The notes below the pieces were generated by a model that ran no database searches, was not told the DNA's origin, and saw only the letters and a program-made list of their open reading frames with translations. Shown one piece after another: positions 1,632 through 58,141 of a DNA stretch of 64,000 bases. The position numbers and the translations under genes are program-made. Source of the DNA: Gemmatimonadales bacterium (GTDB taxonomy: Bacteria > Gemmatimonadota > Gemmatimonadetes > Gemmatimonadales > GWC2-71-9); assembly GCA_033764615.1 (NCBI GenBank), contig JANRIU010000063.1, positions 2,779-66,778 of the forward strand, written 5' to 3'. The number at the start of each line of letters is the position of its first letter. The first letter of the stretch is position 1.

Positions 1632-2259
1632 CGCGCGCCGCCGCCACGCGGCCGAGCGCATAGCGCGTCGTCACCAGCGCCACGTAGAAGAACGTCCACG
1701 CCGCGAACGACGCGAGCAGCGTCACCAGCATCTCGCTCGAGGCGGTCGGCCCGTCGGGCTTGAGCACCACCGGCTTCGGGTGGATGGTGCGGAACATGTA
1801 CACGGTCATGTGGATGAACGGCACGAGCAGCGCGCCGAGGATCCCCACCACCGCGCTGTAGCGCGCGCGCAGCTCCGGCTCCAGCACCGCCGAGCGGAGC
1901 GAGAGGTACCCCACCATCAGGAAGAAGAGGAAGAGCGTGGAGGTGAGGCGCGGCTCCCACTGCCACCACGCGCCCCACACCGGCTTCCCCCACAGCGGCC
2001 CGCTCACCAGCACCATCGCGGTGAGCAGCACGCCGACCTCCACCGACGCCTCGGAGAAGAGGTCGAGCCGGCGGTCGCCGAGCCACAGGTACAGCCCGCT
2101 GCAGATCCCCACGAGACCGAAGGCGAGGAAGGCGCACCACGCGGCCGGCACGTGGATGTAGAAGATCTTCTGCGCCGGGCCCTGCACCGCCTCGATGGGG
2201 GTGAAGCCGATCGCGCGGACCGCGCACGCCACGACCGCGACGAGGGCCACGACCAGCAT
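1624..2259 (-). CDS. ccmC: heme exporter protein C (cytochrome c maturation)
   Basis: Contains KIFYIHVPAAW and the Trp-rich motif WGKPVWGAWWQWEPRLTS typical of CcmC. Start is uncertain: ATG at 2259 is chosen. GC3 stays coding-like up to about 2310, so a non-ATG start is possible. The ATG at 2370 would overlap ccmB by 59 nt. Confidence 0.8.
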   Translation of the reverse strand: MLVVALVAVVACAVRAIGFTPIEAVQGPAQKIFYIHVPAAWCAFLAFGLVGICSGLYLWLGDRRLDLFSEASVEVGVLLTAMVLVSGPLWGKPVWGAWWQWEPRLTSTLFLFFLMVGYLSLRSAVLEPELRARYSAVVGILGALLVPFIHMTVYMFRTIHPKPVVLKPDGPTASSEMLVTLLASFAAWTFFYVALVTTRYALGRVAAARDA

Positions 2260-2311
2260 GGCGCGCCCCCGCTTCGCGAGCGCGAGCGCATCCGGCAGGT
2301 CGGCCGCGGTG

Positions 2312-2983
2312 CTAATCGCGGACGACGACGGGGAAGACCAGGAGGCAGAGGACAATGAAGATGACGTCATATACGCAAAGTAACCGGAGCCAGCCCGCGA
2401 CCTCCGCCAGCGTCTGCCCACCGAGGAGCCGGCCGGTCACCTGCACCCCGACGACCACGGGGATCACGAGGAACGGCATGACCAGCGTGGGCAGGAGCAG
2501 CTCGGCGTGCTTCGCGCGGGCCGTGATGGCGCCGAAGACGGTGCCGACGGCGGCGAAGCCGAGCGTGGTGAGCGGCAGCAGGAGCGCCATGCCGCCCAGG
2601 ACGGGGCCGAAGTCGACGTTGAAGAAGAGCACGACGAGCGGCACCGCGAGCAGCTCGATGGCGAGCGTGAACGCGACGTTGGCGAGGTACTTCCCGAGGA
2701 AGATCGCCTCTCGGGCGATGGGGGCGAGGAGCAGGCCGTCGATCGCGCCGTGCTCCTTCTCGTGCTGGAACGCGCGGTTGAGCGCGGTCGTCGCCGCGAA
2801 GGCGGCCGTCACCCAGAGCGCGCCGGGTGCCACCAGCGCGGGGGCGACCGCCGTCGGGTCCCGCGCGAAGTAGAGCACGAACAGCACGAGGCACGCGAGC
2901 AGCAGCGCCGACATGAGCGCGGAGCGGCTGCGCAGCTCGGCGCGGAGGTCCTTGGCCGCGAGGGTGAGCGCCGCGCTCAGCAT
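2312..2983 (-). CDS. ccmB: heme exporter permease CcmB
   Basis: 223-aa polytopic membrane protein lying between ccmA and ccmC. N-terminus LAAKDLRAELRSRSAL is typical of CcmB. Confidence 0.8.
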   Translation of the reverse strand: MLSAALTLAAKDLRAELRSRSALMSALLLACLVLFVLYFARDPTAVAPALVAPGALWVTAAFAATTALNRAFQHEKEHGAIDGLLLAPIAREAIFLGKYLANVAFTLAIELLAVPLVVLFFNVDFGPVLGGMALLLPLTTLGFAAVGTVFGAITARAKHAELLLPTLVMPFLVIPVVVGVQVTGRLLGGQTLAEVAGWLRLLCVYDVIFIVLCLLVFPVVVRD

Positions 2984-2987
2984 CGGC

Positions 2988-3722
2988 TCACGCGGGGACC
3001 GCCTCGCGGAAGCGGGCGAGGAACGCGTCGGGCTCGCCGACGCGCGCCTCGTCGAGCGCCCAGCGCCCCCCGCTGAACGCTGCCACCCTGGTGGCGATCT
3101 GCCAGAGCTCGGCCGGCTGGTGCGTCACGGCGACGGCGGCGGCGCCGGCCGCGATGCGCGCCGCCAGGAGCTGCCGGATCCGCTCCTGCCACTCGGCGTC
3201 GAGCCCGGTGAACGGCTCGTCGAGGAGCAGGAGCGCCGGCTGGTGCTGCAGGGCGCGGGCGATCGTGGCGCGCTGCAGCATGCCGCGGCTCAGGTTCCGG
3301 GGCGACTCGCCGGCCTTCGCCTCGAGCCCCACCTCCGCGAGCGCCGCCGTGGCCGCCTCCGCTGGAGCCGGCAGCCCGTAGAGGCGCCCGGCGAAGGCGA
3401 GGTTCTCGTGCAGGGTGAGGTCGTCGTACAGGAGGGAGCGGTGCGAGACGAGGCCGATCGCCCGGCGCACCTCGGGGTCGTCATCGCCGATGGGCCGGCC
3501 AAGGACCAGCACCGTGCCGGCGGAGGGCCGGGCAAGGCCGGCGAGGACGCGCAGCAGCGTGGACTTCCCGGCGCCGTTCGGCCCGACGACCACCAGCACC
3601 TCGTGCGCGCCGAGCAGGAGGTCCACGCCGGCCAGGGCGAGCGTGCGCCCGTAGCGACGCACGAGGCCGCGCGCCTCGATGACGGGCGCGACCGCACCGA
3701 GGACCGGACCGGGAGGGGCCAT
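2988..3722 (-). CDS. ccmA: heme-exporting ABC transporter ATP-binding protein CcmA
   Basis: Walker A GPNGAGKST, signature LSRGMLQR, Walker B LLLLDEP. Lies directly upstream of ccmB. Confidence 0.85.
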   Translation of the reverse strand: MAPPGPVLGAVAPVIEARGLVRRYGRTLALAGVDLLLGAHEVLVVVGPNGAGKSTLLRVLAGLARPSAGTVLVLGRPIGDDDPEVRRAIGLVSHRSLLYDDLTLHENLAFAGRLYGLPAPAEAATAALAEVGLEAKAGESPRNLSRGMLQRATIARALQHQPALLLLDEPFTGLDAEWQERIRQLLAARIAAGAAAVAVTHQPAELWQIATRVAAFSGGRWALDEARVGEPDAFLARFREAVPA

Positions 3723-3766
3723 GAGGCCCGAAAGGTACGTCTCCCGGTCTCGCGGTCCAGCAGCGA

Positions 3767-4075
3767 CTACTCCTCGGTGATCACGAACAGCTCGTCGAGC
3801 TTGGTGAGCGTGAGGAGGTAGCGGATCTCGTCGGTGGGATTGCGCAGCGCCACCTCCAGCCCCCGCTCGATCGCCAGGCGACCGACCGCCATCAGCTCGC
3901 CGAGGCCGGCGGAGTCGACGTCGCGGGTGGGGGAGAGGTCGATGACGAAGCGGCCATCGCCGGGGGCGTGCTCCTCCAGCAGGCGCGTGGCATCCTGCCG
4001 GAAGTCATTGCGGGTCTCGAGGCCAAGGACGGACGGTGCGAGCATGCGGATCTCGGGCGTGAAAGTGTGAGCCAT
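3767..4075 (-). CDS. STAS-domain protein (anti-sigma-factor antagonist-like)
   Basis: 102 aa. DLSPTRDVDSAGLGELM and the C-terminal LLTLTKLDELF resemble SpoIIAA/RsbV-type STAS domains. GGAGG lies upstream of the ATG. Confidence 0.7.
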   Translation of the reverse strand: MAHTFTPEIRMLAPSVLGLETRNDFRQDATRLLEEHAPGDGRFVIDLSPTRDVDSAGLGELMAVGRLAIERGLEVALRNPTDEIRYLLTLTKLDELFVITEE

Positions 4076-4301
4076 GGGTTGCCTGCCTCCCCTAGGCCCG
4101 ATGAGTCACGTCCCTCGCATGCCTGCCACGGCCGGTGCTGCGGACCGTCGCGCCTTCGGCAACCGAGCCATCTCAGGTATCCTTCCCTGCACCAGCACCT
4201 GAGACCTCTGGTTTTGCGGCCCCGGATCGCTCCGGGTGTGCTCTTGTCGGGCGTACCGAACTACGCTTTTGACGACTGACTTCGCCTGCACTTCCCTGCT
4301 G

Positions 4302-4318
4302 AAGCACACCCCGTGCCA
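4302..4318 (-). promoter_or_regulatory. candidate sigma-54 promoter upstream of the STAS-ccmABCD genes
   Basis: The minus strand reads TGGCACGGGGTGTGCTT. GG and GC have the correct 10-nt spacing, with a single deviation from the TGGCACG-N4-TTGCW consensus at -14. It lies about 230 nt upstream of the STAS ATG. Confidence 0.4.
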
Positions 4319-4426
4319 CGTGCGCGGCGCGTTGTGTTTCCAGCACTTGGCCGCCTCCGGCCCCCGGGGGCCCTCCGCCAGCCGTCGCATCCTGCGGCGG
4401 TCCACACCGTCCTGTTCCTGGATACC

Positions 4427-6382
<1,956 letters not shown>

Positions 6383-52589: not shown

Positions 52590-53171
52590 GTGTGGCCCGA
52601 CGTGCTGGAGCGCGCCGCCCAGGTGGTGGCGGCCGGCGGTTTCGCGTACGCGGCGGTCGTCTTCGGCACCACGTGGGCGGTGCGGCAGGGGCACCTGCAG
52701 CCGTTCGGCGCGTGGCCCCGCCTCGTCCGCTCGCTCGGCGACCCCCTGCTCAAGCCGCTCGAACGCCGCCTGCTCCGGAGTGGCGGCAACCCGGTCGACG
52801 CGCCGCTCTGGCTCTTCGGCAGTTCGATCGTCGTGGGCCTCGTGCTGGTCACGGCCACCCGCTGGCTCATCTCGCTGTACTTCCAGTTCGCCGGCCTCGC
52901 CACGGCCGGGCCGAGGATGCTGGCCGCGAGCGTGGCGGCGCTGGTGTTCAACGTGCTGCAGTTCGCCCTGCTCATCCGCGTGCTCGGCAGCTGGTTCGGG
53001 ATCACGGGCGAGGAGTCGTGGATGCGTCCCGTGCGCATCCTGACCGACTGGCTGCTCGACCCCCTCCGGCGCATCATCCCGCCGTTCGGCCCCTTCGACC
53101 TGACGCCGCTGGCCGCGTACTTCGCGCTCAGGATCGCGGGGGACGCGCTCGTGCGGGCGCTGGCTGGGTAG
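52590..53171 (+). CDS. YggT-family membrane protein
   Basis: Two YggT-like halves, with ALLIRVLGSWFGI and LDPLRRIIPPFGPFDLTPL. Confidence 0.65.
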   Translation: MWPDVLERAAQVVAAGGFAYAAVVFGTTWAVRQGHLQPFGAWPRLVRSLGDPLLKPLERRLLRSGGNPVDAPLWLFGSSIVVGLVLVTATRWLISLYFQFAGLATAGPRMLAASVAALVFNVLQFALLIRVLGSWFGITGEESWMRPVRILTDWLLDPLRRIIPPFGPFDLTPLAAYFALRIAGDALVRALAG

Positions 53172-53174
53172 GAG

Positions 53175-53285
53175 GCGGGGCGGACGGGCGGACGGGCGGA
53201 CTGGCGGACCGGCGGACTGGGCATCGTGCACGCACGGCCGCCCGCCCACGAAGCCGCCTTCCGCCCGTCCGCTCGCCCGCCCCCC
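53175..53285. repeat. octamer inverted-repeat element F (yggT / metF intergenic)
   Basis: The left arm (53175-53221) has five GGCGGAC units. The right arm ccgcccgcccacgaagccgccttccgcccgtccgctcgcccgcccccc lies at 53238-53285. Confidence 0.8.
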
Positions 53286-53357
53286 GAGCGGCACTTTCCT
53301 TGCAGCACGCGGTATTCATGGCTAGCCTTCCGCCGTCCGATAATCGACGTCCGGCGT

Positions 53358-53400
53358 CGTGGCGATTTGTGCAGCTTGCGGCCACGTAAAACAACCGCTA
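53358..53400 (+). ncRNA. candidate H-type pseudoknot riboswitch (SAM-II/SAM-V-like) in the metF-metH leader
   Basis: P1 is CGUGGC (53358-63) pairing with GCCACG (53381-86). The U-rich L1 is GAUUUGUGCAGC. The loop 3' end UUGCGG can pair with the downstream CCGCUAA. The A-rich L3 is UAAAACAA. The GAUUU...GCUUG segment resembles SAM-II conserved positions. Confidence 0.3.
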
Positions 53401-53408
53401 AACCGCGC

Positions 53409-53433
53409 GCCCGGGGCGGTTCTCTCCCCGGGC
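53409..53433 (+). terminator. GC-rich hairpin in the metF leader (possible expression platform)
   Basis: An 8-bp stem (gcccgggg - cggttctct - ccccgggc) followed by aagccgtttcc. Confidence 0.35.
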
Positions 53434-53462
53434 AAGCCGTTTCCAGGGCAGGTACAGGACCG

Positions 53463-54349
53463 ATGCTGATTCCCTCCGCACCGCAGGACCTCAAGGTCTC
53501 GTTCGAGTTCTTCCCCCCCAAGTCGGCCGAGATGGAGGAGGCGCTGTGGCGCTCCATCAAGCGGCTGGAGCCGCTCGGGCCGCAGTTCGTCTCGGTGACG
53601 TACGGCGCGGGCGGCAGCACGCGCGAGCGGACGCACAACACGGTGCGCCGGATCGTGAAGGAGACGACGCTGCAGCCGGCCGCGCACCTGACGTGCGTGG
53701 CGGCGACGCAGGGCGAGCTCGACCAGGTGGCGGACGCATACTGGGGCGCGGGCGTGCGGCACATCGTGGCGCTCCGCGGCGACCCGCCGGGCGGGCAGGA
53801 GCGGTACACGCCGCATCCGGGCGGCTACGCCTGGACCGTCGACCTCATCGAGGGGCTCCGCCGCCTGCACGACTTCGAGATCACCGTCGCGTGCTTCCCG
53901 GAGGTGCACCCGGAGGCGCTCTCCGCCGAGGCCGACCTGGACAACCTGAAGCGGAAGATCGACGCCGGCGCCACGCGGGCGATCACGCAGTTCTTCTTCG
54001 ACAACGACGTGTACCTGCGCTTCGTCGACCGGGCGCGCGCGGCCGGCATCCACATCCCGATCCTGCCGGGGATCATGCCGGTCACGAACTTCAGGATGAT
54101 GGGCGTCTTCGCCGCGAAGGCGGGCGCCTCCGTCCCGGCGTGGCTCGGCACGCTGTTCGACGGGCTCGACGACGACGCCGAGACGCGGAAGCTCGTGGCG
54201 GCGACGGTGTGCGCCGAGCAGGTCCGCAAGCTGGAGGAGGCTGGGGTGCGCGAGTTCCACTTCTACACCTTGAACCGGGCCGATCTCTCCTACGCGATCT
54301 GCCACATCCTCGGCGTCCGGCCGGCCGCGGTGGCGGCGGGGAGCGCGGC

Positions 54350-54353
<4 letters not shown>
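53463..54353 (+). CDS. metF: 5,10-methylenetetrahydrofolate reductase
   Basis: [29 protein letters not shown] and ITQFFFD motifs. Confidence 0.92.

Positions 54354-58140
<3,787 letters not shown>

Positions 58141-58141
<1 letters not shown>

Follow-up and report, generated by a model that had tools for sequence, protein, structure and literature searches.

The window analysed here, a 64,000-nucleotide stretch of a Gemmatimonadales contig, has a gap of 291 nt between a YGGT-family gene and metF, and this raises the question of which RNA element lies in the gap and how it could control the genes behind it. An initial annotation had proposed a SAM-II/SAM-V-like pseudoknot in front of metF and metH, hedged as a divergent variant, an element for a different ligand, or nothing at all. 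The metF-metH context that it named was borne out by Pfam and NCBIfam, with these genes at the locus:

52590-53171, YGGT-family gene (Pfam)
53463-54353, + strand, metF, methylenetetrahydrofolate reductase of 296 aa (Pfam MTHFR, E=1.9e-94; NCBIfam NF006950, 387 bits vs 382)
54350-58141, + strand, metH, cobalamin-dependent methionine synthase (five MetH Pfam domains; NCBIfam NF007024, 2111 bits)

The metH ATG at 54350, a start read from the translation, overlaps the metF stop codon as ATGA, and metF and metH are therefore a single operon behind the leader. The aptamer, the GC hairpin and all of the named parts described below were located in the 291-nt gap.

We scanned the whole 64-kb window with the 4227 families of Rfam 15 at gathering thresholds, which gave two matches in all. 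One of these is RF00521 (SAM_alpha / SAM-II), scoring 40.9 bits where the gathering score is 36 (E=8.9e-06 for the 64-kb window and 4227 families). The covariance-model search suggested by the initial annotation thus matched this family, over the full length of the model, and the RF00521 alignment matches the blocks GAUUUG, GCUUGC, CCACGU, AAACAA and CGCUAAA in the window. A second, permissive Rfam scan of 53200-53600 at E<=10 returned four rows, namely RF00521, RF01726 and two at chance level. RF01726 (“SAM-II long loop”) reached only 22 bits vs a cut-off of 44, with an alignment at 53353-53411, and the SAM-V, SAM/SAH and SAH models had no match in 53200-53600 at E<=10. SAM-V and RF01726 have the pseudoknot/triplex logic and the ligand in common with the window element, which is set apart from RF01726 by score and from SAM-V by the lack of any row at that threshold; the SAM-II half of the original proposal stood and the SAM-V half fell. 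The initial annotation had also reported a canonical 3' AAAGCU as missing. The 3' block of the family is CGCUAAA, which is exact in the window, and AAAGCU was a mistaken motif.

The best explanation of the locus is, with high confidence, a canonical SAM-II (metA-motif, RF00521) SAM riboswitch in the 5' leader of the metF-metH operon, and the identity as SAM-II, taken alone, is close to certain. The aptamer is an ordinary member of a class known since 2005, not a new RNA class or a divergent variant; the earlier hedge was dropped because it is a canonical family member. Its parts are as follows:

53349-53425, + strand, full extent of the RF00521 match (model positions 1-79 of 79)
53358-53363, + strand, P1 5' strand CGUGGC (sequence and Rfam alignment)
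53364-53380, loop enclosed by P1, GAUUUGUGCAGCUUGCG, 17 nt, starting with GAUUUG
53364-53368, + strand, U-rich L1, GAUUU, matching the consensus GAUUUG
53376-53380, + strand, P2 5' strand UUGCG (U76 and U77 in P2b; G78, C79 and G80 in P2a)
53381-53386, + strand, P1 3' strand GCCACG (sequence and Rfam alignment)
53387-53394, + strand, A-rich L3 linker UAAAACAA, matching the consensus UUAAAcAA
53395-53402, + strand, P2 3' strand CCGC-U-AAA, matching the consensus CGCUAAA
53395-53401, CCGCUAA portion of the aptamer tail CCGCUAAA

Judged by its sequence, this RNA can form an H-type pseudoknot. P1 (CGUGGC/GCCACG) reads as six pairs, and the pseudoknot adds five: G53378-C53398, C53379-G53397 and G53380-C53396, then U53377-A53400 and U53376-A53401, with U53399, the equivalent of U44, left unpaired within it. 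The P1, U-rich loop, A-rich linker, CCGCUAA tail and GC hairpin of the initial annotation are all present in the sequence, and its two stems are the P1 and P2 of the SAM-II family. Its loop length of 18 nt is corrected to 17 nt, since G53381 had been counted in both loop and stem.

In the solved SAM-II structure, as described in PMC3303485, L1 occupies the major groove of P2 (P2b), the adenine of SAM pairs with the unpaired U44 in the 3' strand of P2b, and the sulfonium contacts carbonyl oxygens of the L1 and P2b uridines. The residues of this pocket have counterparts in the window at U53366-68 (L1), U53376-77 (P2b) and the unpaired U53399, and all of the pocket features (L1 uridines, P2b UU, the unpaired U of the GCUAAA tail and the A-rich L3) align to the consensus. 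That structure, the Sargasso Sea metX riboswitch (2QWY, PMC3303485), shares with the window the H-type pseudoknot, the L1 uridines for a major-groove triplex and the equivalent of the unpaired U44. The metX riboswitch has its Shine-Dalgarno sequence within the P2 3' strand, giving direct control of translation (PMC3303485), whereas in the window the start codon is 61 nt past the tail, with a separate hairpin between. The likeness also extends to the SAM-II elements of Corbino et al. 2005 (PMC1273637), in the features given there: P1, L1, the pseudoknot and the CGCUAAA tail are held in common, both stand before methionine-pathway genes, and the GC hairpin between P2 and the ORF is found in many members.

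Covariation in both stems had been sought in relatives, and it was found for one P2 pair in an aptamer that is otherwise nearly invariant in the clade. Among 33 clade aptamers, 98.6% of the cells for the 11 proposed pairs are paired, and for P1 the figure is 100%. Nine of the 11 pairs are invariant, so the clade alone says little on P1. Four of the five P2 pairs are invariant as well, and the fifth, G53380-C53396, covaries. In a set of 53 aptamers, the equivalents of this last P2a pair are G-C in 27, A-U in nine, C-G in one and G-U in one; a Watson-Crick pair is made via a 1-nt bulge in 14, and one has no pair. The count of direct Watson-Crick pairs at this position, 37, was reached by 0/2000 shuffles (shuffled mean 23.0), a count that is not a probability because the sequences are related. 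At P1, the closing pair of the 53-aptamer set varies among U-G, C-G and U-A, and the distant member L114 has the outer pair swapped from C-G to G-C. Both helices covary family-wide according to PMC1273637. PMC2258182 predicted that the final nucleotide of the loop forms a Watson-Crick pair with a position further downstream, and this is probably the last P2a pair that covaries here.

We then asked how widely the aptamer occurs. The source genome has two RF00521 matches above cut-off. A match was found in 33/41 genomes of the same family and order and in 99/141 genomes of an even sample of the phylum, where it was above cut-off in 93; these tallies take in two unpublished genomes (G082 and G119), both with a match. 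By family, the phylum sample gave 57/62 in f1, 31/31 in f2, 1/15 in f7 and 0/13 in f10, and RF00521 was found in none of 14 control genomes. Downstream genes were tallied for 30 other loci, comprising the second copy of the source genome (L002) and 29 from relatives. Of these loci, 21 have metH as their first long downstream ORF, two have metF, one has a fused homocysteine-methyltransferase/MTHFR, three have a thrC-like PLP enzyme and one has an O-succinylhomoserine sulfhydrylase (NCBIfam), while the remaining two have aminotransferases 255-318 nt away. Counting the thrC-like genes, a methionine-pathway gene is the first long ORF in 28/30. SAM-II homologues thus stand before methionine genes throughout the order, mostly metH. 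The window match is more than chance, given its RF00521 score and E-value and the recurrence of the same motif before methionine genes in relatives; with conservation added to score and gene context, chance can be all but dismissed as the source of the match.

The most similar MetF proteins from named genomes come from two Gemmatimonadota MAGs (72% and 71% identity). The next 78, of the best 80 taken, are mostly from Alphaproteobacteria, at 60-69% identity. A joint transfer of riboswitch and metF from Alphaproteobacteria was considered and rejected. By nhmmer on all 80 loci, the aptamer lies upstream of metF only in the two Gemmatimonadota MAGs, and Rfam on 20 of the 80 gave two matches, again these MAGs. 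With just 2/80 similar metF loci carrying the aptamer, both of them from Gemmatimonadota, the riboswitch was therefore not carried in with an alphaproteobacterial metF.

Known SAM-II members have Proteobacteria or Bacteroidetes as hosts, whereas the window host belongs to the Gemmatimonadota. The window element also differs in what it controls, metF-metH, as “metF” has no occurrence in the text of PMC1273637. No mention of SAM-II in Gemmatimonadota was found in the literature searched, which lay outside subscription journals and the Rfam taxonomy pages. The class is thus known, and its lineage and gene context were not found in print. A class named for the alpha-proteobacteria is common across a different phylum (99/141 genomes sampled). 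For the operon itself, the result is a predicted textbook riboswitch giving SAM feedback on metF-metH, which is mostly annotation tidying.

How the aptamer could act on the operon depends on the leader between the tail and metF, which contains the following:

53349-53362, + strand, candidate antiterminator 5' half (leader plus P1 5' strand), pairing with 53403-53417
53403-53417, + strand, candidate antiterminator 3' half, covering the whole hairpin 5' arm
53409-53416/53426-53433, + strand, GC-rich hairpin GCCCGGGG/CCCCGGGC (8 G-C pairs, 9-nt loop, -18.1 kcal/mol)
53450-53453, + strand, second Shine-Dalgarno candidate, AGGU, as read from the sequence
53456-53459, + strand, possible Shine-Dalgarno sequence AGGA, 3 nt before the AUG, likewise a reading

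By analogy with the known mechanism of the family, SAM would bind in the L1/P2b triplex and pair with the unpaired U53399. This binding would lock P1 and P2 and turn the operon down at plentiful SAM, making the element an OFF switch. SAM-II elements are described as preceding methionine genes, with terminators in many members and OFF-switch behavior (PMC1273637), and they are most often paired with terminators according to PMC2258182. In the window, the sequence 3' of the hairpin is AAGCCGUUUCC, a degenerate U-tract with no more than three U among 8 nt, and a consensus scan of the leader, window hairpin included, found no terminator. This differs from terminator-type members such as the S. meliloti metZ element described in PMC9373788. 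The hairpin was also considered as a dispersed repeat, which was rejected on its single occurrence in the 64-kb window.

Relatives help to interpret this hairpin. A GC-rich hairpin lies <=30 nt from the tail in 31/33 leaders, and the next 8 nt hold >=4 U in 25/33 and >=5 U in 17/33. For four of the six leaders with low U counts (L002, L015, L016 and L022), the script picked a hairpin that is not the right one, and inspection by eye shows a U-run behind an imperfect stem. On this sequence comparison, the window hairpin occupies the same position as the intrinsic terminators of relatives, with the U-tract absent. It may serve as the expression platform, as had been suggested, since it lies where relatives have their terminators, though with no such U-tract.

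In the attenuation route, 53349-53362 would pair with 53403-53417 when SAM is absent, sequestering the hairpin 5' arm and preventing the hairpin. With SAM bound, P1 would be locked, the hairpin at 53409-53433 could form, and transcription would be attenuated before metF. Because no U-tract follows the window hairpin, attenuation is inferred here, and we lean modestly towards it. The minimum-energy fold of 53349-53425, the RNA made before the hairpin 3' arm, is the 53349-53362/53403-53417 helix of 13 bp. Its duplex energy is -22.8 kcal/mol vs -17.1 +/- 2.8 for shuffles, and 11/300 shuffles reach it in a comparison where more than one hypothesis was tried. An antiterminator of this type is not conserved, with z<-2 in only three of 33 loci and a mean z of -0.1. 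The modelled support for this helix as the antiterminator of the window is thus marginal. The whole leader is no stabler than shuffles (z=-0.09), a value that is uninformative because minimum-energy folding cannot show a pseudoknot. A long-range helix in the leader fold between 53352-53359 and the start-codon region at 53461-53468 was rejected as a mechanism, because SAM would then turn the operon on and because the metF leaders of relatives that were inspected showed no obvious counterpart.

Several relatives appear to use another arrangement. In 9/33 (the metH leaders L006, L007, L014, L016, L017, L019, L020, L022 and L028), the tail GCUAAAACG is complementary to a conserved CGUUUU(A/G)GC in the terminator loop, and only 0-5/300 shuffles were as good. 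Judged by complementarity, these leaders seem to have a simple antiterminator in which the tail competes with the terminator, and SAM binding would disable it. A tail-to-loop antiterminator was rejected for the window copy (z=-0.4, 97/300 shuffles as good). The relatives provide clear sequence evidence on a SAM-II tail competing with a terminator, a mechanism that PMC2258182 called experimentally unestablished in 2007; the effects of SAM-II on gene expression were still called unstudied in 2022, in PMC9373788.

The strongest rival to attenuation keeps the same SAM-II aptamer and gives it a non-intrinsic output, through Rho-dependent termination or pausing, mRNA stability, or translation at a distance. 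A window hairpin with no U-tract would fit such an output, and there are precedents. In the S. meliloti metA leader, the Shine-Dalgarno sequence under SAM-II control is one used 74 nt downstream, and no riboswitch-driven antiterminator was predictable for the metA terminator, as reported in PMC9373788. Some bacteria, in turn, terminate at structures with no canonical U-tail (PMC2258182). Against this output, the Shine-Dalgarno candidates of the window (53450-53459) are ~50 nt past the pseudoknot and outside P2, and the hairpin occupies exactly the position at which, in at least 25/33 relatives, a U-rich tract comes after the hairpin. We consider a non-intrinsic output unlikely, though worth keeping in view.

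The next rival is that the aptamer is intact and the switch is decaying: the U-tract would have been lost, metF-metH would no longer be regulated, and the hairpin would be a remnant. Of the 33 leaders, the window copy and L003 are the two that combine a strong hairpin with no more than three U behind it, no hairpin is left in L009 and L025, and the 40.9 bits of the window copy is the lowest RF00521 score among 30 loci from the family and order search. However, the window keeps every conserved nucleotide of the aptamer, and both the 8-bp all-G-C hairpin and the 13-bp alternative helix are retained; pure decay would be expected to cost aptamer positions too. Decay is accordingly an improbable reading. 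SAH riboswitches occur before metF/metH-type genes. The metF-metH context would also suit an SAH-responsive element, but a SAM-II look-alike whose ligand is SAH, a SAM analogue or some other compound is very improbable given that no SAH, SAM/SAH or SAM-V match was found at E<=10 and that the ligand contacts described in PMC3303485 (L1 uridines, P2b UU and the unpaired U of GCUAAA) are conserved.

Returning to a SAM-II riboswitch that would act by attenuation, a broader reading is that SAM-II is the core methionine regulator of a non-proteobacterial order, probably the Gemmatimonadales, serving metH, metF-metH, metZ and a MetM/MetO-type operon with two interchangeable antiterminator designs. 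This is possible but somewhat doubtful. If it is true, one design would be the pairing of the tail GCUAAAACG with the terminator loop (9/33), and the other, in the window, would pair the leader and P1 5' strand with the 5' arm of a terminator lacking a U-tract.

Upstream of the aptamer, a consensus scan of the leader found no sigma-70-like promoter. One candidate can be read by eye:

53300-53328, + strand, putative promoter TTGCAG (53300-53305), 17-nt spacer, TAGCCT (53323-53328)

A TTGnnn-17-TAnnnT arrangement is readable upstream of the aptamer in L002, L029 and L032 too. Most of the leaders L001-L033 also have a conserved ACAAYYGA motif 3-6 nt before P1, and from its placement this motif might indicate where the transcript starts. 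The window form is ATAATCGA (53340-53347), ~10 nt from P1, and the extra bases between it and P1 supply the candidate antiterminator strand.

Further upstream, directly after the yggT stop, the octamer GGCGGACN is present in 5-6 tandem copies at 53171-53220, with an inverted partner at 53257-53289. The repeats and their partner (53171-53289) fold into a ~110-nt hairpin of -86.3 kcal/mol (z=-4.2, 0/200 shuffles as stable). Going by this predicted fold, the hairpin probably shields the metF leader from transcription of yggT.

The second SAM-II copy of the source genome is at G000:C95:35413-35487 on the - strand (read as L002 and L112), with a score of 40.3 bits. Three genes follow it on the - strand of L112: a threonine-synthase homologue at 3520-4827 (TIGR00260, 248 bits), a 91-aa ThiS-family protein at 3243-3518 and a protein with ThiF plus rhodanese domains at 2058-3239. 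By gene content, this operon appears to encode the MetM/MetO/MoeZ thiocarboxylate pathway, which converts O-phosphohomoserine to homocysteine and is described in the GapMind 2026 preprint. Predicted SAM control of the operon supports a role in methionine, not threonine, synthesis. SAM-II in the source genome would thus also front a thiocarboxylate-type homocysteine pathway. A thrC-like gene follows the aptamer in the relatives L004 and L026 as well.

The source genome also has a full-length match to SAM-I (RF00162) that falls just short of the cut-off, at 41 vs 44.4 bits (E=8.5e-8 for the genome). It is located at G000:C38:32523-32635 on the - strand (read as L133 2224-2336), with no Pfam-recognised gene within ~1.1 kb downstream, beyond which the first is a subtilase. 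If real, this match would place a SAM-I-like element and SAM-II in one genome. As of 2007, the two classes had not been seen together in a single species, as stated in PMC2258182. In the window itself, a c-di-GMP-I riboswitch (RF01051) was matched at 4155-4252 on the - strand, with 54.8 bits vs a cut-off of 35.
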